A stretch of DNA of 26,442 nucleotides from Armatimonadota bacterium. Its GTDB lineage: Bacteria > Armatimonadota > UBA5829. The position numbers were made by a program, and so were the translations under genes. Positions within the stretch are counted from its first letter, which is position 1. Every line of letters begins with the position of its first letter. Shown piece after piece: positions 9,154 through 20,298 of this stretch. The DNA is taken from contig JAOAGX010000002.1 in the NCBI GenBank assembly GCA_026415535.1, positions 1 to 26,442 on the forward strand. The letters run 5' to 3'. The notes under the pieces are model-generated. The model ran no database searches. It was not told the origin of the DNA and was given only the letters and a program-made list of their open reading frames with translations.

Positions 9154-10780
9154 ATGAGAAGTATGAGCTTAACAACGGCAGCCTATAGCAAGGCGAAGAG
9201 ACTGTTGATCGAGGGCGTTATTGACAATCCCTTAGTTGCCCAGGAACTGCGCACTCGAATGCGAGACTGGAAAGCGTTTGGGGCAATGGGTGCCTACGTG
9301 CTTTTGGTGGCGGGCATTCAGTTTGTTGCCTACGTAGCCATTTCGAACAGCTGTTGTGTGTCTTTGCCCTTGACGCTTTTGACTGGGGGGCGAAAGCTCG
9401 GTATGGAGATATTCTTGCATCTGGTCTGGACTCAAGCCATACTGCTAATGCTCATCATTCCCTCGATCACCTTCAGCTCGCTCGCGCAAGAAATCGAGCG
9501 CGAAACAATGGAAATGCTTGCGCTCACACGCCTCACCTCCAGCAAGATAGTGGTCGGCAAGCAGTTGGCGGGGTTGCTGTACGCTCTTGTTCTGCTCATC
9601 TCCACGGTATCGCTTGCAAGCATGTGTTTGATGCTTGGAGGTATATCACCCGCCGAGATCGGCGTGTGGTATTTGGTATTGGTTGCGTGGTGTTTTCTTT
9701 TGACATGCGTTGTGGCGTTTTCTGGTCCTCTCTTTTTGCAAAAACGGTCGCCTCGGCCCTTTTTACGTACGGGACGTCGATATTGTACTTCATCGTGACG
9801 ATACCATTTGGCTGCTTGGCGGAGGGGCTCATTTTCGGAGGGCAATCGCAGCAGCACGTTCTTGGCGCGCTAAACCCTGGTTTGGCCGCTTACACAGCGA
9901 TGCAAGTTGTTGATGTTTGCGGTGTCACGTTTCCGCTCTGGCTTGTGGCAGTCGGGCTGCACTTCGCGGTCGGTGCACTTCTACTACTTGTTGCTTCGAC
10001 TCACGTTAGATACAAGCGAGCTGAGAGGGCTTTGCCGATCCGAATAATTCTGATCTTGGTTACCGCCTCGCTTGTCTGGCTCCTCGTGGGCAACCTGTCT
10101 GGTATGGGAAGTGTGCCGGCTAAAAGCGAAGATACTATGGACTTGATAAATGTAGTTTACAGTACCATTTCGGGTTTTGTTGCTTTACTCACCTGTGCGT
10201 TTGCGACGGGCCCGGTTAGGCAACGCTCTATGTGTATCCCTTCAGTGCGAAAGATGTTTAAGAGTGATCTAGCTGGCGCTGTGCCGTTGTTGGTCTTATG
10301 GACCGCTCTTTCCTGGGCGGCTTTTATCGGAACGCTTGCTTGGCTGATGAACTCGCAGGCGAATGGACTGCCGAAGGCGGCCTGGAAATCCTTGTTTGAG
10401 GTGGGGATTTCTCTTGTGGCCATAGCTTCTGGTTTTTCGGCTTTGGGTGTGTTGGCTTCCTGCTGTGTGAAGCAGCGCAAGAACGCAGTAGGAATTGTTC
10501 TTGGGGTCCTGACGATCGCTTTTGCGGGCTATTTGATAGTGTTTTCCTACTATCCCCCCGGGTTCTGACAAATGCGGCTTGGTCTGGCAACTCGCCGCGT
10601 TCTGGCCTATGACTCCCAATGTTGGCGTCAACCGGGAGTTGGAAGGACATGCCAAACCTGTGGTGGTCGCCAAGTCATTCCTGGATTGTAACCACCTTAG
10701 TCTATCTTACTTTCGCGATTTTATGCATTCTCCTTTCTCCCAGGGCGCAGGCGTGCTATGGCGGAGTCGTAGAAGACTAG
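9154..10780 (+). pseudogene. ABC-2-type permease split by about three frameshifts
   Basis: NPLVAQELRTRMR and EIERETMEMLALTRL motifs in 9154-9710. The frame changes near 9710 (apparent TG duplication, giving GVFWSSLF), in the C6 run at 10554-10559 (giving LVWQLAAFWPM) and near 10635 (giving final TM SWIVTTLVYLTFAILCILLS, stop TAG 10778-10780). Confidence 0.8.
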
Positions 10781-11237
10781 TTCATAGGAGTTATGTCGAA
10801 AACAAAACTGCGAAAGCGCACCGCGTAGTCGTTTGATATTTTCGAGCTATACTGGAAAAAAACATATCCAATCCAAATCTACTCCAAGCTTCAGAGTTGC
10901 CACTTGGGAACCTCTACATCAGCAACCCCAAACCAAGCGTTGAACGTCCCTATGAACTCCTCCTTCAGATAAGCATTTGCGCTCTTGATATCCGCTATCA
11001 TCTCAGACTTGTCGGCAAAGTGCGTGTTGTTGAACGTCGAACCTGAGTACGTAGTATTGAGTCTTTCTCCTTCTTACTGATACTAATAACCCTTCTTTAT
11101 AGGGACATTTTCCCTTTGCAGTTAGAGGTGACATAATTGCCTTGCAAATACAAATGCTCAAAGCTGAGCTTTCCGGTCCCAGTGTGGTTCCTGTATAATT
11201 GAAGCAAGAGTTCGAGTGTCGAAGGAGACTTTGCCGC

Positions 11238-12155
11238 GTGTCCTACGATGTCATCATTCTCGGTGGGGGCCCGGCGGGGCTGACCGCCGGTATCTATGCT
11301 TCTAGAGCCAGGCTATCTACTCTACTCGTTGAAAAGGCTTTTCCCGGCGGACAGCTTACTATGTGCGAGAATGTTGAGAACTTTCCTGGGTACCTAGGCG
11401 GGCCTGGAATGAAGCTTGCCGAGACGATGCGAGAACAGGCCGAACGATTCGGCATGGAATCCAGAATTGCTGAAGTAGAAAGGGTTGACCTTCTTGGGGT
11501 GGAGAAGGTTCTTTACACTGCTGACAAGGAAGAAATCCGCGGCAAAACCGTGATCCTCTCGCTGGGAGCAAAGCCCAAGCGGCTTGGGGTGCCGGGCGAA
11601 AGGGAGTTCATAGGTCGCGGCGTTTCCTATTGCGCCGTATGCGACGGTGCGTTCTTTAAGGACAAACGTCTGGCAGTTGTCGGAGGTGGCGACACGGCGG
11701 TCGAGGATTCAGTTTTTCTGACGCGATATGCTTCCAGCGTGCACATCGTCCACCGCCGAGACAAGTTCCGCGCTCAGCGTATAATACAGGAGAGGGCACT
11801 TGCAAACCCAGTCATTACAGTTTGCTGGAACAGTGTGGTCCGCGAGATCGGCGGAACCGACAAGGTGGAGCACGTTATCTTGGAGGATGTGTTCACTCGC
11901 GACCAAACTCTGCTATCGGTTGACGGGGTTTTCATACTTATCGGTGCCGAGCCCAACACTAAGATGGTGGATGGCCAGGTCAAACTCGACGAGATGGGCT
12001 ACATCTTGACTGACGAGCATATGCGCACAAACGTCCCCGGCGTTTTTGCCGCTGGTGACGTGAGGCACAAGCCATTAAGACAGATAATCACTGCGTGTGC
12101 CGATGGTGCAGTCGCCGCCGCTGCGGCTGAGAAATATATCGAGGGGTCGCTTTAG
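11238..12155 (+). CDS. trxB: Thioredoxin-disulfide reductase
   Basis: DVIILGGGPAGLTA, active site YCAVCDG, VVGGGDTAVEDS, HRRDKFRA, FAAGDVR. GTG 11238 follows the SD GAAGGAG and is preferred over the ORF-track start 11199. Confidence 0.95.
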   Translation: MSYDVIILGGGPAGLTAGIYASRARLSTLLVEKAFPGGQLTMCENVENFPGYLGGPGMKLAETMREQAERFGMESRIAEVERVDLLGVEKVLYTADKEEIRGKTVILSLGAKPKRLGVPGEREFIGRGVSYCAVCDGAFFKDKRLAVVGGGDTAVEDSVFLTRYASSVHIVHRRDKFRAQRIIQERALANPVITVCWNSVVREIGGTDKVEHVILEDVFTRDQTLLSVDGVFILIGAEPNTKMVDGQVKLDEMGYILTDEHMRTNVPGVFAAGDVRHKPLRQIITACADGAVAAAAAEKYIEGSL

Positions 12156-15451: not shown

Positions 15452-15815
15452 AGATCCTTTGCTTTGGCTCAGAGTCCCGTCATTCTAGTCAAGAAGTTCG
15501 CCATTCTGACCCATAGCCCGTCGTTCTAACCCATGGTCCGTCATTCTGACCCATAGCCCGTCGTTCTAGCCCATGGTCCGTCATTCTGACCCATAGGTCC
15601 GTCATTCTGAGCGTAGCGAAGAATCTCCCGACGACCAGCACTTAGAGATCCTTCGCTTCGCTCAGGACGACTTGTCTACGTGTCTGTTTATGCTCCAGGA
15701 GTACGCCATTCTGGCCCAGTAGCTTGTTCATTCTGTTCCAGTAGCTCATTCGTTCTGACCCATTGCCCGTTATTCTGACCCATAGGCCAGTCATTCTGAG
15801 TGTAGCGAAGAATCT
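15452..15815. repeat. CGTC-tagged REP cluster with 20/21-bp tandem arrays
   Basis: Units starting CGTCATTC-like at 15478, 15499, 15519, 15539, 15559 and 15579 lead into the REP pair at 15600-15627 and 15645-15671. A second array from 15704 leads into a REP half at 15790-15815. A degenerate inverted half lies at 15452-15475. Confidence 0.9.
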
Positions 15816-15853: not shown

Positions 15854-15915
15854 TTGACAATCGAATTGTAACGTGCTACGATTCAGCAAAACGTAGTACT
15901 ACAGAGTAGTACCAC
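15854..15915 (+). promoter_or_regulatory. Sigma70-type promoter overlapped by palindromic operator-like sites
   Basis: TTGACA (15854-15859), 17 bp, TACGAT (15877-15882). GTGCTAC-N13-GTAGTAC (15873-15899) covers the -10 and start site. GTACTAC-AGA-GTAGTAC at 15896-15912. Confidence 0.75.
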
Positions 15916-15932: not shown

Positions 15933-17282
15933 ATGAGCAAGCTGGTAAAGGTTTTGGCAATACTCGTCGCGTGTATAATCGCGGCGGGAACGTGTGAAGG
16001 TCTGGATAATATATGGGATTTGGAGGCGGTTGATCAGTACGGTATCGGCACGCATCCGAAGGTCAACGCTTCAACAAACGATCCAAACAATCGTGTTATT
16101 GTCGAAGGTATCGCGCTTGCTGGGTCGAGCGAGATTTTGAACCCTGGTCCACCTGCTGGCATGGGTATTGCGTACACTCTGTTTATACAAGACGACACAT
16201 CCTACCGTGGCGGGATTCAAGCTTGGGCCGGTTCGTGGTTTTATGGAGATCCGTTGTGGACTAGTCTCCGAAACACCGACTACATCAATGTCAATGCTGG
16301 GGACAGGGTGAGGATCACAGGATTCCTCGCCGACGCGGGACGAGGTAAGGTCGTAATCAATCACCGTCACTCGAACAACCCAGTTTTGGTTTTTACAGTC
16401 GAAGTGCTTGGCCATCCGGGGCTGCCCGATCCGGTTTTTATACCATCTGTTTCGGCCTGCAACTACTTTGATCAGACGCGTGCTGGCGGCGGAGAGTTCT
16501 ATCAGACGCGTTATGCGATGTTGCACGGGCTTAATATTGTAAGCGGAAACTGGGCTAACAATTCACTTCTAACCGTTGCTGACAGTACTGGCTCGGTCGG
16601 TATGCTTTTATCTTTGATGGGTGACTTTAACGGCAAACAGCCGCCTCAGGGCAAACTGAACGTGGTTGGTATTTTCGATCAAGAGGATACAACCCTTCCG
16701 CATACTGAAGGCTACAGGTTGTGGGTCAAGAGGCAATCGGACGTGGCGCTGGCGTTGGATGCTTGTCGCCAGGTTAGGTCGCGCAGTAATGGAGAGCGGG
16801 TAGGGTTGGCCAACAAAGTCGTGTCTCGCGCGTATCCCGGCTACTTCTATATACAGGACGCCGGGCGAACGGGCGGGGTGCGAGTAGTTAGCAATCGCTC
16901 GGTTGTCCCTGGTAATGTGGTTTGCGTGCAGGGAAGTGTAACAAGTATCACGAATGAGAAAGTGGTGACGCCTACATATTTGATTGTCAACAGCGGTAGT
17001 GCTCCTAAACCGATCGGAGTAACAAGCCGCGAGCTATGGCGCATGACCGGTCTGGATGTGCGCGGCCTGCTAGTTAGGTGCGTGTGCAAGATTGGTGTTG
17101 ATCAAGGTGGTGGGGTATATTCCCTGACCGATGATGCCGGAAAGACGATTTACGTGCAGACGAACGGGGTTACTCTGCCCAGCACGGGAACCAGAGTTGC
17201 TATTGATGCTGTGGTGAGTGAATTGAATGGAACACCGATGCTGCTTCTTGCATCGGGGGATGACGTGCATACGCTGGAATGA
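15933..17282 (+). CDS. Secreted protein with about four OB-fold-like repeats, function unknown
   Basis: Signal peptide MSKLVKVLAILVACIIAAGTCEG. OB-like segments V.VEGI...LFIQDD...GG...GDRVRITG, TVADSTG...LNVVGIFDQ...GYRL, YFYIQD...GGVRV...PGNVV.V.G and GLLVR...LTDD. SD AGGAGAGG upstream. Confidence 0.8.
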   Translation: MSKLVKVLAILVACIIAAGTCEGLDNIWDLEAVDQYGIGTHPKVNASTNDPNNRVIVEGIALAGSSEILNPGPPAGMGIAYTLFIQDDTSYRGGIQAWAGSWFYGDPLWTSLRNTDYINVNAGDRVRITGFLADAGRGKVVINHRHSNNPVLVFTVEVLGHPGLPDPVFIPSVSACNYFDQTRAGGGEFYQTRYAMLHGLNIVSGNWANNSLLTVADSTGSVGMLLSLMGDFNGKQPPQGKLNVVGIFDQEDTTLPHTEGYRLWVKRQSDVALALDACRQVRSRSNGERVGLANKVVSRAYPGYFYIQDAGRTGGVRVVSNRSVVPGNVVCVQGSVTSITNEKVVTPTYLIVNSGSAPKPIGVTSRELWRMTGLDVRGLLVRCVCKIGVDQGGGVYSLTDDAGKTIYVQTNGVTLPSTGTRVAIDAVVSELNGTPMLLLASGDDVHTLE

Positions 17283-17962
17283 TGAACGGGCACGGACAAC
17301 CGGGGCGAACAACGCCGGGTTTTACTCTTATAGAGTTGCTGGTGGTCATCGCGGTCATCGCGATGTTAGCGGCTTTGTTGGCCCCGGTTCTCATTAATGC
17401 GAAATTGGGTGCAAAAGTGGCGCGGGTTCACTCGGACCTGCGCCAAATAGCAATCGCGATAGATGCGTATAAGGAAGACTGTAAGGGCTTACCACCGGTG
17501 AGGGAGTCTTGCATGTACAACTCCGCTGTGGACTACTATGATCTGCCCAAGGAGCTTTACCAAATGCGCTATCTTCCTATAAGCCGGATGCTTGACCCCT
17601 TTAACACTGTCCGTACACAAGACGGACGGGATCAGGGCCGTGCTTATAAGTATCTAGCCATAGGGTGGGGATACAGTAACAATTCCAGAACCTCGTTTGC
17701 GATGTGGATCCCGAAGGACTATCCGATAAGCAAGCAGGATTGTGCACTGTACTATATGAATAGGGGACGGATTTATCGCTACCCCGAAAGGAAACCTTGG
17801 GAAGCTCCGGTGATTTGGGCTGTATGGAGTGTCGGTCCTGCCGGCGATCCGGGTTGGCAAGAGGCCGGGCTTCGTAAGCTGCCGGTTCCGAGAAGCGAGT
17901 GGTACCCATATAACCCGAGGGGGATCATAGTTCGGCTGAGCGACGGTAGGAAATCGCCGTGA
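17279..17962 (+). CDS. Prepilin-type N-terminal cleavage/methylation domain protein (GspG-like pseudopilin)
   Basis: Class III signal G|FTLIELLVVIAVIAMLAALLAP, helix AKVARVHSDLRQIAIAIDAY, C-terminal WSVGP. ATGA overlap with the upstream gene. Confidence 0.9.
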   Translation: MMNGHGQPGRTTPGFTLIELLVVIAVIAMLAALLAPVLINAKLGAKVARVHSDLRQIAIAIDAYKEDCKGLPPVRESCMYNSAVDYYDLPKELYQMRYLPISRMLDPFNTVRTQDGRDQGRAYKYLAIGWGYSNNSRTSFAMWIPKDYPISKQDCALYYMNRGRIYRYPERKPWEAPVIWAVWSVGPAGDPGWQEAGLRKLPVPRSEWYPYNPRGIIVRLSDGRKSP

Positions 17963-18474
17963 AATATTCGGCGCGAGATCTTGCTGTTGGGGGACTTTTC
18001 GGAGCGGTTGGCGTCGCGTTGCCGATCGTGTTTCATGCTGTTGGTCTCGGGAGAGCTTTTCTTCCGATGCACTTACCGGTGCTGGTGGGTGGACTTTTAG
18101 TTTCCCCGGCAGTTGCATTTGCTGTAGGAGTGGTAACCCCTCTTGTTTCGTCAGGCTTGACGGGCATGCCGCCGATGGTTCCAACGGCGTTCTTGATGAC
18201 TCTCGAACTCGGAGCGCTGGCTGGAATTGCAAGTATTAGCCGGCGATTGCTTCGGCTTCCGGTGATGGTATCTGTAATTTTCGCGATGGTGGCGGCGCGA
18301 GTGATTGGAGCTTTGGAATTGCTGGCAATCGCTCCTCTGATGGGTATGAAGCAAAGTCCGGTGGTCTATCTAACGCAATCGGTAGTGTTGAGCCTGCCGG
18401 GAATCGCGCTTCAGTTAGTTGCAGCACCTATCGCAGTTGCGGCGATAAATCGGATCAGTCCAGAACAAAGATGA
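17959..18474 (+). CDS. ECF transporter substrate-specific (S) component, substrate unknown
   Basis: 171 aa, highly hydrophobic, about 5-6 TM. Motifs FLPMHLPVLVGG and PLVSS.LTGMPP. GTGA overlap with the upstream gene. Followed by T and A components. Confidence 0.8.
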   Translation: MKYSARDLAVGGLFGAVGVALPIVFHAVGLGRAFLPMHLPVLVGGLLVSPAVAFAVGVVTPLVSSGLTGMPPMVPTAFLMTLELGALAGIASISRRLLRLPVMVSVIFAMVAARVIGALELLAIAPLMGMKQSPVVYLTQSVVLSLPGIALQLVAAPIAVAAINRISPEQR

Positions 18475-18890
18475 AACCATTTACAGACCTCGATCTTGCC
18501 AGGTCTTACCACGGTCACCTGGGACCATATCTGATCATCGGCATCAAAATGGGCAATCGTGCAGTTGCCGAGCTTGCGCCGGAGACTTGCTTCCAGTTGA
18601 GCTGCGAGGTTAGATGTCCGGAAGCGCCGCCGCCTTCGTGTGTGATCGATGGCATTCAACTCTCGACCGGTTGTACGATGGGCAAGGGAAACATCAGTCA
18701 CACTGTAACACCCAACGGGGTCAGCGCCGTATTCACCAATAAAGCAACTGGTCAATCGGTTTGCCTTATGGCTAGGGAAGAATTTGTCAGTCAAGCAACC
18801 GAGTGGCTCAGGGAGTTCGGTGAAGAAAAAGCATCTCTAATGTGTTGGGAAACCGCCTCCGACGAGGTCTTGACGACGTGCGATTCGTAG
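18471..18890 (+). CDS. FmdE-family metal-binding protein
   Basis: YHGHLGPYLIIG and CVIDGIQLSTGCTMGKGN. ATGA overlap with the upstream gene. Confidence 0.9.
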   Translation: MKPFTDLDLARSYHGHLGPYLIIGIKMGNRAVAELAPETCFQLSCEVRCPEAPPPSCVIDGIQLSTGCTMGKGNISHTVTPNGVSAVFTNKATGQSVCLMAREEFVSQATEWLREFGEEKASLMCWETASDEVLTTCDS

Positions 18891-19591
18891 ATCCTGCTGG
18901 TCGTGGCCTCATATCTTCCATACATCCCTACGTTCGCGTCTATTGTGGTGGCGTGCTGTTATTGGCAGCGGCACTCCCGGACTCACCGCGACGGCTCGTG
19001 GCTACAGGTGTGATCGTGGCTTTGTTCGCTGCGGCTTCGCGAATCGGATGGCGCGTTATCGTGTGGGGAGCGATACCCGTGGTATCGCTAGTGGGAGGCG
19101 TTGGAATTCTTTCGGTCATCTCGGGGATGCGAATGGAGGAGTTTCGACTGCAGCCGGTGGTGATGTTTGCAGGAAAGTGTTACCTTGCCTACCTTGCTTC
19201 CGCTTCTCTTGCCGCAAGCACTCACTACGCTGACGCCCTGCAAGCTTTCGACCTACTGAGGGTTCCGACTCTTTTTACCTCAATCGCAGGAAGTATTTGT
19301 CGCTGGTTTCACTTGGTTTTTAGGGAGGCATCAGCAGCCAATACGGCTCGTGTTCTGCGCGGAGGCGACCGAAAGAACCGGTTGGCACAGGCTGGCGATC
19401 TTGCGCGAATTTCGGCATCAGTGATGACGTGGTCGTTCGCGCGGGCCGAGAGGGTGGCAGCTGCGATGGAGTGCAGAGGATTCCGCGGTATACTGGTGCG
19501 ACTGCCAGGACGACCATTGCGCGCCAGGGATCTAATTTGGCTCGTCGCCATTTTTGCTCTCTTGGTCGGAATATGGGTGGTTCTGCAATAA
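18878..19591 (+). CDS. ECF transporter transmembrane (T) component, CbiQ/NikQ-like
   Basis: Hydrophobic N-half, LRVP, ARVLRG, RAERVAAAMECRGF. GTG 18878 with upstream GAGG is preferred over 18842. Confidence 0.85.
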   Translation: MRFVDPAGRGLISSIHPYVRVYCGGVLLLAAALPDSPRRLVATGVIVALFAAASRIGWRVIVWGAIPVVSLVGGVGILSVISGMRMEEFRLQPVVMFAGKCYLAYLASASLAASTHYADALQAFDLLRVPTLFTSIAGSICRWFHLVFREASAANTARVLRGGDRKNRLAQAGDLARISASVMTWSFARAERVAAAMECRGFRGILVRLPGRPLRARDLIWLVAIFALLVGIWVVLQ

Positions 19592-20298
19592 AGACTCATC
19601 TCGCAATAGAAGTTTCGAACCTCAGTGTGCGCTATCCCGACGGGCGACTCGCGCTTAATGACATCTCGTTCCTAGTTGAGGTGGGCGACTCGGTGGCGGT
19701 CCTTGGAGCAAACGGGGCTGGCAAAAGTACCTTACTGCTTGCTTTGGTTGGCGTGTTGCCTGCCGAAGGCGAAATTCGCTTCGGCGAGATTGTGTTGTCT
19801 GACAAGACGTTGCGCGATGTTCGGCGAAAGGTTCAATTGGTATTTCAGGATCCGAACGACCAGCTTTTCATGCCGCTCGTGCGGGACGATGTAGCGTTTG
19901 GGCCGTTGAACTTTGGCGTGCCCAAAGATCAAGTGCCGCAGTTGGTTGACAAGTCGCTTGAGGCAGTTGGACTCTCAGGGTTCGGAGACCGTGCTCCGCA
20001 CAATCTGAGCCTAGGAGAGCGGAAGCGGGCTGCGATTGCTAGTGTGCTTGCTTGCGAACCCGAGGTTATTCTTTTAGACGAGCCTTCAGCCGGTCTTGAT
20101 GCTCCGGGTAGGCGGCAGTTGTTCAATCTCCTGCGCGATTTTAAAGCTACCAAGCTAATAGCTACTCATGACCTCGTGCTGGCAGAGGAACTGTGCTCCA
20201 AAGCGATTGTTCTCAAAGCCGGAAAGCTGATTACATCCGGCCCAATTAGTTCGCTACTTTCGAACGAAATGTTGTTATCGGATTGCGGGTTGAAGTGA
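19573..20298 (+). CDS. ECF transporter ATPase (A) component, CbiO/NikO-like
   Basis: GANGAGKST, FQDPNDQLF..V..DVAFGP.N, LSLGERKR, LLDEP, ATHD. ATG 19573 overlaps the T-component end and is preferred over 19429. Confidence 0.9.
   Translation: MGGSAIKTHLAIEVSNLSVRYPDGRLALNDISFLVEVGDSVAVLGANGAGKSTLLLALVGVLPAEGEIRFGEIVLSDKTLRDVRRKVQLVFQDPNDQLFMPLVRDDVAFGPLNFGVPKDQVPQLVDKSLEAVGLSGFGDRAPHNLSLGERKRAAIASVLACEPEVILLDEPSAGLDAPGRRQLFNLLRDFKATKLIATHDLVLAEELCSKAIVLKAGKLITSGPISSLLSNEMLLSDCGLK

Follow-up and report, generated by a model that had tools for sequence, protein, structure and literature searches.

How the substrates of energy-coupling factor (ECF) transporters reach the importer in bacteria with an outer membrane is a largely open question. 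ECF transporters are defined by the lack of an extracytoplasmic binding protein, and the locus described here touches this question because it places genes for two exported proteins in front of an ECF transporter. It lies in a stretch of 26,442 nucleotides from an Armatimonadota bacterium (assembly GCA_026415535.1, contig JAOAGX010000002.1, positions 1 to 26,442), referred to below as the window. Six genes on the + strand, g1 to g6, occupy positions 15933-20298 and encode a protein with predicted OB folds, a pseudopilin-like prepilin, the three parts of an ECF transporter, and an FmdE family protein. A preliminary description, made from the sequence alone, had proposed that a surface OB-fold protein and a pilin capture nickel, cobalt, or a metal cofactor and deliver it across the outer envelope to the ECF module, in place of a TonB-dependent receptor. 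That interpretation as a whole is partly supported. The unit is probably a NikR-repressed nickel-acquisition operon. Its g1 and g2 would make up a portable module outside the cytoplasm that feeds interchangeable inner-membrane importers. The features on which this reading draws are the following.

15854..15882, + strand: sigma-70-type promoter, TTGACA (15854), 17-nt spacer, TG-extended TACGAT (15877)
15873..15899, + strand: NikR-type operator, GTGCTAC (15873-15879)-N13-GTAGTAC (15893-15899); the left half-site overlaps the -10 hexamer
15893..15915, + strand: hairpin of extra related half-sites, GTAGTACTAC-AGA-GTAGTACCAC, near-perfect over 10 bp, in the leader of about 44 nt
15933..17282, + strand: g1, open reading frame with ATG start; Sec-exported protein with four predicted tandem OB folds
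17279..17962, + strand: g2, prepilin with a G|FTLIE leader and a GspG-like head with large insertions
17959..18474, + strand: g3, ECF S component of a small PF12822 subfamily
18471..18890, + strand: g4, FmdE core domain without a signal peptide
18878..19591, + strand: g5, ECF T component (CbiQ family); alternative start GTG 18842
19573..20298, + strand: g6, single ECF ATPase, CbiO-like

The operon and its NikR operator

Each of the six open reading frames overlaps or abuts the next behind a single promoter. The junctions consist of ATGA at 17279 (g1/g2), GTGA at 17959 (g2/g3), and ATGA at 18471 (g3/g4), followed by a g4/g5 overlap of 13 nt (g5 start GTG 18878) or 49 nt (start 18842) and a g5/g6 overlap of 19 nt with g6 starting at ATG 19573. 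The coupled arrangement first described from the reading frames therefore holds at every junction. For g1, ATG 15933 is the most likely start because it lies 5 nt after AGGAGAGG, and GTG 15930 lies too near AGGAGAGG. The only strong promoter precedes g1 and matches 10 of 12 consensus positions in addition to its TG extension. Inside the operon, promoter-like and terminator-like sites are no commoner than in shuffled sequence, in agreement with the one promoter claimed earlier. A divergent LuxR-type regulator gene on one side and a convergent sugar-isomerase-like gene on the other leave the six-gene unit well bounded. The sequence was matched in one DNA run, from a hot-spring metagenome, and in no RNA run. 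Judged by this layout, g1 to g6 are predicted to be one operon behind one promoter.

The preliminary description had also noted an operator resembling that of a metal repressor. It proves to be a NikR box, and the pattern GTGYTAC-N13/14-GTARYAC has a single match in the 2.1-Mb genome, the one before g1. The operator matches the published NikR signal of delta-proteobacteria, GTGTTAC-[N13/14]-GTAACAC (PMC545781). Alignment of the 160 bases upstream of g1 across 28 related loci, designated here by L numbers, revealed a common 7-13-7 inverted repeat with its left arm over the -10 hexamer. The variant GTGTTAC-N13-GTAACAC occurs in L001, L004, L015, L016, L018, and L019, and GTGCTAC-N13-GTAGCAC in L005, L006, and L014. 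A NikR box is present in 17 of the 28 loci (13 perfect, 4 with one mismatch), at most 250 nt from g1 in every case; the distance is 38-125 nt in 16 loci and 193 nt in L022. Random 270-nt windows from the same loci equal that level in 0.07% of cases. Two large relative genomes (3.3 and 3.1 Mb) contain one box each, only before g1. Upstream of g1 in the Planctomycetota and Sumerlaeota loci no NikR box was found at up to two mismatches, and none was found in L030-L033, which have the S component only. The single weak match, in L028, falls within the g1 gene.

The regulator itself is encoded on another contig (C256) of the window's genome (PF08753, 107.5 bits). This protein matches P. horikoshii NikR at an E-value of 1e-42, and its alignment to 2BJ1 and 2CA9 (the NikR proteins of P. 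horikoshii and H. pylori) reveals that the H...HxH...C nickel site is kept. In 8 loci, nikR adjoins the cassette. The two marks of a NikR regulon, an orthologue with the residues of the high-affinity nickel site and a 7-13/14-7 repeat in the promoter, are both present. A nickel-acquisition operon with predicted repression by NikR is the best-supported interpretation of the locus. When nickel is plentiful, Ni-NikR would sit on the 7-13-7 box over the -10 hexamer and keep all six genes off; in nickel shortage, the six would be made together. Of the metals first proposed, the choice narrows to nickel because of this operator. A corrinoid substrate finds no support, because an Rfam scan of the whole window returned no riboswitch and nothing at gathering scores; control by a B12 or other riboswitch is likewise unsupported.

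Two further features of these upstream regions deserve mention. The leader hairpin at 15893-15915 reuses the right NikR half-site and may be either an element of the RNA or another binding site for a repressor. In L003, L013, L022, and L026, the operator is a direct repeat, GTG(C/T)TAC-N13-GTGCTAC, and not an inverted one; these sequences may be variant or decayed NikR sites.

The g1-g2 pair across genomes

The proposed link between the first two genes and metal transport was put to a test set beforehand. The survey covered 30 places where g1 occurs (the window, 3 exact-protein look-ups, 24 species-representative genomes, and 2 distant homologues), with neighbours mapped by tblastn and Pfam. 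The g2 gene directly follows g1 in 30 of 30 places, which belong to Armatimonadota, Planctomycetota, and Sumerlaeota. A metal-type ECF or ABC importer stands directly beside the pair in 21 of them, often with nikR and a NikR box as well, and the claimed linkage is upheld.

The gene order S-FmdE-T-A is found behind the pair in 6 places, including the window, and the S component alone in one (L003). A ZnuA-type binding protein, an ATPase, and an ABC-3 permease take this position in 12 places, Sumerlaeota, Brocadiia, and Pirellulales included, and in 10 of those an S-adenosylmethionine (SAM) methyltransferase comes after the importer. One locus, L034, has a divergent ZnuABC and an FmdE fusion after g2. 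Another, L028 from Phycisphaerae, has the pair, FmdE, an OprB porin, and then CbiM/PDGLE-CbiQ-CbiO, the canonical Ni/Co ECF system. A methyltransferase alone lies behind the pair in 5 places, where two of the contigs stop, and no importer is adjacent at 4 distinct places of the 30. On a maximum-likelihood tree of g1, rooted at the midpoint only, importer type needs at least seven changes, which indicates that the pair stayed together while the importer was exchanged. Across several phyla, this two-gene module moves among ECF, ZnuABC-type, and CbiMNQO importers. Within Armatimonadota its distribution is patchy: it is single-copy and occurs in 27 of 401 sampled genomes, from four families.

The complete 3.3-Mb genome that holds L001 is instructive on this point. 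Its sole perfect NikR box (G001:C1:2630929-2630955) precedes only nikR, g1, g2, and the methyltransferase gene, and neither CbiM nor an orthologous ABC-3 permease was found in that genome. An operon made up of the pair and a methyltransferase argues that the system is built around the pair and not around any one importer. In Armatimonadota, g1-g2 are the main and often the only target with a perfect NikR box, which suggests a nickel-acquisition step that has gone unrecognised.

A role unconnected with metal uptake can also be imagined for the pair, in adhesion or in nucleic-acid binding by OB folds together with a competence-like pilin, the genes being merely co-located with importers. Pilins are classic parts of DNA uptake and adhesion, and most of the proteins structurally closest to g1 are OB proteins that bind nucleic acids or OB modules of extracellular nucleases. 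This explanation is nevertheless very improbable, given that g1 is the first gene after the NikR box in 17 loci, that in several phyla the pair is coupled to metal importers of three unrelated kinds, and that close members of the S-component subfamily are hardly ever seen apart from the pair.

The methyltransferase just mentioned, of about 200 residues, is encoded behind g1-g2 or behind the ZnuABC module at 15 loci (for example L006:14501-15115 and L001:9906-10517). The same protein is encoded after distant PF12822 S components that lack g1-g2 (L031:5518-6102). It is absent from the window, and FmdE stands in the corresponding position. Attempts to name it were abandoned, as its best NCBIfam matches (DVU_1556 family, CpaM, BioC, UbiE) score far below their cut-offs.

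The exported proteins and their possible action

The N-terminus of g1 is a Sec signal peptide, without a consistent lipobox. AlphaFold2 predicts four tandem OB folds with high confidence (pLDDT 95.6, pTM 0.91). A Foldseek search with this model returned tandem-OB proteins (HIN-200, RPA, CST) and the periplasmic YgiW. Exhaustive structural alignment of the domains taken singly gave Z scores of 10-11 for each, and the proteins placed onto them include YgiW (Z 10.3) and the haem chaperone CcmE (Z 8.6). No Pfam family matches g1 above its cut-off. It is not a member of the BOF/YgiW sequence family, and the likeness lies in the fold only. YgiW/BOF and CcmE are exported single OB domains, whereas g1 has four such domains, motifs of its own, and no sequence family.

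About 116 homologues of g1 are present in a collection clustered at 90% identity, nearly all of them unnamed Armatimonadota proteins. A g1 profile run against 1.8 billion representatives found about 70 clusters at E <1e-30, most of which align to no more than the first 265 positions. Conservation centres on a core made of OB1-OB2, roughly residues 22-275. Residues P165, E188, Q191, W207, Y261, and R262 are invariant, and at least 90% of sequences retain D124, N143, H146, D180, R183, D217, and D249-Q250-E251; the conserved motifs are RHS, CNYFD, GGGExYQTR, and GIFDQED. One face of OB2 is conserved, with H146, D180, E188, Q191, W207, D249-E251, and Y261-R262 among its positions. Short homologues from Planctomycetota and other phyla consist of the two-OB core alone with dockerin or PEP-CTERM modules at the C-terminus. 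These ends suggest that the proteins reside at the outer membrane or farther out.

The second protein carries a prepilin N_methyl motif (28 bits), and its first 75 residues match GspG. It has a class III leader with Gly-1, Phe+1, and Glu+5, followed by a hydrophobic N-terminal helix, which places it in the pilin class; of 117 homologues, at least 90% share G-1, F+1, and E+5. Against the GspG equivalog TIGR01710 it scores 45.4 bits, below the cut-off of 88.85, and there are no gsp genes at the locus. The AlphaFold2 model (pLDDT 92.8) has a long N-terminal helix (residues 17-68) and a beta-sheet head, and the head is about 90 residues larger than that of GspG. Foldseek gave weak E-values only against the PDB, and the exhaustive aligner was needed to place g2 nearest to EpsG (Z 8.5) and PulG (Z 7.0), at 23-27% identity. 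Comparison of predicted structures thus bears out both the OB fold proposed for g1 and the GspG-like pilin proposed for g2. The head is 31% identical to that of the Phycisphaerae orthologue (E 3e-23), so conservation across phyla is not confined to the helix. No family of substrate-binding proteins matches the head, which matches pilins only. While g2 resembles EpsG and PulG in its leader, Phe+1, Glu+5, and best structural match, its gene lies outside a gsp operon, within an importer operon under predicted nickel control.

In the favoured reading, g1 and g2 would capture nickel, or a small complex of it, on the outer side of the inner membrane and pass it to whichever inner-membrane importer is encoded behind them. 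Here the importer would be a dedicated ECF transporter made up of a new His/Met/Glu-rich S component, a T component, and one type of ATPase acting as a homodimer, and FmdE would accept the metal in the cytoplasm. A prepilin peptidase would cut g2, and type IV filament machinery encoded elsewhere would build a short pseudopilus with g1 as its partner or cargo. For this scheme to hold, g1 and/or g2 must bind nickel and the two proteins must interact, g2 must polymerise, and the S component must carry nickel. A surface location of g1, a fibre made of g2, and delivery across the outer envelope are steps that we infer. Processing and assembly of g2 are favoured because the residues critical for assembly are conserved, the nearest structures are major pseudopilins, and relatives of g1 carry extracellular sorting modules. 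Three relatives that bear the cassette encode a prepilin peptidase (PilD) and 2-7 secretins, and the window's genome contains several PilB/PilT-like ATPases.

Several observations weigh against this reading. There is no obvious metal site in g2. In g1, H146 is the single widely conserved His, and the remaining conserved positions hold D, E, R, K, W, Y, and Q, a set that suits a chelated or organic ligand no less than a bare ion. The operon contains no pilus assembly gene. No prepilin peptidase was found in the window's genome, an absence that is uninformative because that genome is 67% complete. The ZnuABC-type loci already have a periplasmic binding protein, and g1-g2 are therefore not simply its substitute. 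In the complete relative, the predicted NikR-controlled operon has no dedicated importer nearby. Finally, the NikR box is restricted to Armatimonadota loci, and in Planctomycetota and Sumerlaeota the metal is read solely from the neighbouring transporters, which are of Zn/Mn type or Ni/Co type.

The main rival retains the nickel role without any filament of g2. Under it, g2 would be a single-pass anchor in the inner membrane whose periplasmic head holds g1 by the importer, and the pair would be a periplasmic accessory like NikK/NikL of NikKMLQO rather than an outer-membrane route. We consider this possible but somewhat unlikely. It agrees with the finding that none of the 30 loci has assembly genes, chance T2SSE neighbours aside. 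It also has precedents: Legionella PilA2 aids iron acquisition independently of PilD, PilT, and piliation (PMC13170364), and extra periplasmic parts of nickel ECF systems are already known (PMC545781). However, a mere anchor would have no need of Glu+5 and the cleavage site, both kept in at least 90% of the 117 homologues, and the dockerin and PEP-CTERM ends of g1 homologues point past the periplasm. The periplasmic binding protein of the ZnuABC-type loci likewise speaks against a simple accessory of this kind.

At the other extreme, the pair may carry out filament-based metal uptake: in nickel starvation, the dedicated pseudopilin would polymerise through a secretin and, with its OB partner, bring nickel or a nickel chelate from the cell's surroundings into the periplasm for delivery to the interchangeable importers. 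Such a passage of the outer membrane would be independent of TonB, in the manner of DNA uptake by the competence pilus. We hold this to be rather unlikely; if it is true, no earlier case is known of an ECF transporter in a diderm bacterium that is served by an extracytoplasmic capture system. The part of the preliminary description that had the pair replace a TonB-dependent receptor finds no support here. The window's genome encodes such receptors (three matches), and the pair in L028 coexists with an OprB porin gene.

In a further alternative, which we judge quite unlikely, g1 is a secreted "nickelophore" analogous to the haemophores. The pseudopilin g2, induced by starvation, would then fit a type II machine for the export of g1, and the metal would return through porins or receptors to the importer. 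The Sec route of g1, the likeness of g2 to a GspG-type major pseudopilin, the dockerin or PEP-CTERM ends of g1 homologues, the OprB porin in the L028 cluster, and the secretins in relatives are all consistent with such export. We know of no type II system with a cargo-specific major pseudopilin, however, and this lack of precedent counts against the idea. The Armatimonadota loci lack a gene for a return receptor, and the anchoring modules suggest a protein that is bound to the cell rather than free.

Some observations on g1 stand apart from these arguments. In L022, a long-read assembly, the g1 gene (10001-11315) is broken into two frames, 10001-10816 and 10833-11315, and the rest of the six-gene operon is intact despite the split; either the frameshift is an error or the gene is broken. 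A cupin domain in homologue P0103 follows the PEP-CTERM end; two genes were probably merged in the call, and the domain was left out of the evidence. Paralogues resembling g1 in the window's genome (contigs C62, C7, and C323) are fragments at contig edges without pilin neighbours. They are uninformative on whether pilins and OB proteins form a general theme. In L006, directly after the nickel operon (L006:15391-17766), there is a DUF1559/SBP_bac_10 prepilin together with a 493-aa protein whose OB domains resemble domains 3-4 of g1. This second pair hints that pairs of a pilin and an OB protein may be a wider theme.

The importer, FmdE, and related systems

The S component g3 matches a recognised S family, PF12822 ECF_trnsprt, at 34.5 bits (cut-off 30.7). 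It has no match to PF01891, the family of CbiM/NikM-type S components, and CbiM was not found in the window's genome. Behind FmdE, g5 matches CbiQ (PF02361, 44.8 bits) and g6 matches PF00005 (98.9 bits), and these genes for the T component and the ATPase overlap. The g3 subfamily is small (65 clusters), and its close members share contigs with g1 and g2. Across 24 members, H26, M37, M70, M80, E83, and Q152 are invariant, together with TGMP and PG motifs; as far as residues can tell, this set would fit direct metal coordination better than a vitamin pocket. Accordingly qualified, g3 is predicted to be a metal-type S component outside the CbiM/NikM family. More distant relatives pair with the same kind of methyltransferase and lack g1-g2. 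One of them, in L031, adjoins CbiMNQO, a TonB-dependent receptor, and an HMA protein; a 315-aa protein beside it has no similarity to the g1 profile. Still more distant S members have unrelated neighbours.

These results bear on what the S component carries. Its substrate may be a nickel chelate, another nickel-related small molecule, or cobalt, and not free Ni(II), with g1 recognising the organic part. S components of the PF12822 type usually carry vitamins, and g3 belongs to this vitamin-type class and not to CbiM/NikM. The ECF module of L022 has a CbiM operon as its divergent neighbour, with the NikR box in the intergenic region common to both, and nikR lies just downstream with its own box; two modules under the same NikR boxes would be redundant if they had one substrate. 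A nickel chelate is a possible substrate because of the class of g3, the conserved residues of g1 (chiefly R, K, W, Y, D, and E, and only one His), and this neighbouring CbiM. The methyltransferase that accompanies related S components and importers fits as well. We still regard this substrate as rather doubtful, since the invariant His, Met, and Glu of the S component fit direct coordination of a metal, and the window contains neither metallophore synthesis genes nor a riboswitch.

The fourth gene encodes an FmdE protein (PF02663, 68 bits, cut-off 22.9), as was proposed. Among its orthologues, H14-G-H16 and C57 are invariant, and Gly18 replaces the first Cys ligand. In a solved member of the family, His, His, Cys, and Cys bind a mixture of Zn and Ni (PMC2954224), and g4 keeps three of these four ligands. 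The structures 2GLZ, 2GVI, and 3D00 share with g4 the core domain with its HxH...C pattern (PMC2954224); g4 differs in lacking the zinc-finger domain and in the change of the third ligand from Cys to Gly18. According to the authors of the structures, most genes of the family adjoin metal transporters (PMC2954224). With no signal peptide, g4 would act as a cytoplasmic chaperone for nickel. The window's genome also has a match to the large-subunit family of [NiFe]-hydrogenase, a possible user of the metal. To our knowledge, no function has been shown for any FmdE family member, and the operon gives this long-unexplained family a concrete, testable context.

FmdE varies in other lineages. The Phycisphaerae protein at L028:2185-2787 has an N-terminal hydrophobic segment, possibly for export, and its absence here suggests that the compartment of FmdE may differ between lineages. 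In L034 (9127-10713), also from Phycisphaerae, FmdE is fused to an inosine-uridine nucleoside hydrolase domain.

Known nickel systems offer the closest comparison for the importer. The NikR-repressed Nik(MN)QO and NikKMLQO systems share with this operon a 7-13-7 operator (GTGTTAC/GTAACAC) over the promoter, a CbiQ-like T component, and a single CbiO-like ATPase (PMC545781). They differ from it in that the S component here is PF12822 and not PF01891, the PDGLE/NikN part is missing, and FmdE lies inside the operon. By sequence, then, this operon agrees with known NikR-controlled ECF nickel systems in its predicted regulation and in its T/A module but not in its S component. NikK and NikL are extra extracytoplasmic components of such systems (Rodionov et al. 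2004, PMC545781). The accessories found here, a four-OB protein and a prepilin, are unrelated to them.

For the pilin, the Sulfolobus bindosome appears to be the nearest functional analogue of a protein with a pilin signal that serves an importer. There, sugar-binding proteins carry class III signal peptides (PMC3047682). As is proposed for g2, they are uptake-related extracytoplasmic proteins with a type IV pilin signal that feed ABC importers, with filament-type machinery encoded elsewhere (PMC3047682). The bindosome is archaeal, has no outer membrane to contend with, and its pilin-signal protein is itself a classical binding protein, whereas here g2 has a head like that of GspG, and another protein, with OB folds, is the candidate binder. 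Pilins have been connected with transition metals before: Synechocystis PilA1 contributes to Fe and Mn uptake (PMC4144903, PMC5634550) and Legionella PilA2 to that of Fe (PMC13170364). They resemble g2 as type IV pilins in a context of transition-metal uptake, but they are housekeeping major pilins with a second role. In contrast, g2 is dedicated, predicted to be under the control of a metal sensor, paired with a partner protein, and located inside importer operons. A literature search found no paper describing the g1-g2 pair or the operon. The pair suggests a new job for type IV filament proteins, and tests of binding and uptake are straightforward because all parts are small and either soluble or easily expressed.

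Upstream of the operon, between the LuxR-type regulator gene and the promoter, lie two tandem-repeat arrays (15502-15610 and 15707-15799). Their repeat unit is CATTCTGACCCATAGYCCGT, 20-22 bp long and present in 4-5 copies per array, and each array terminates in a GTCATTCTGAG(C/T)GTAGCGAAGAATCT element.

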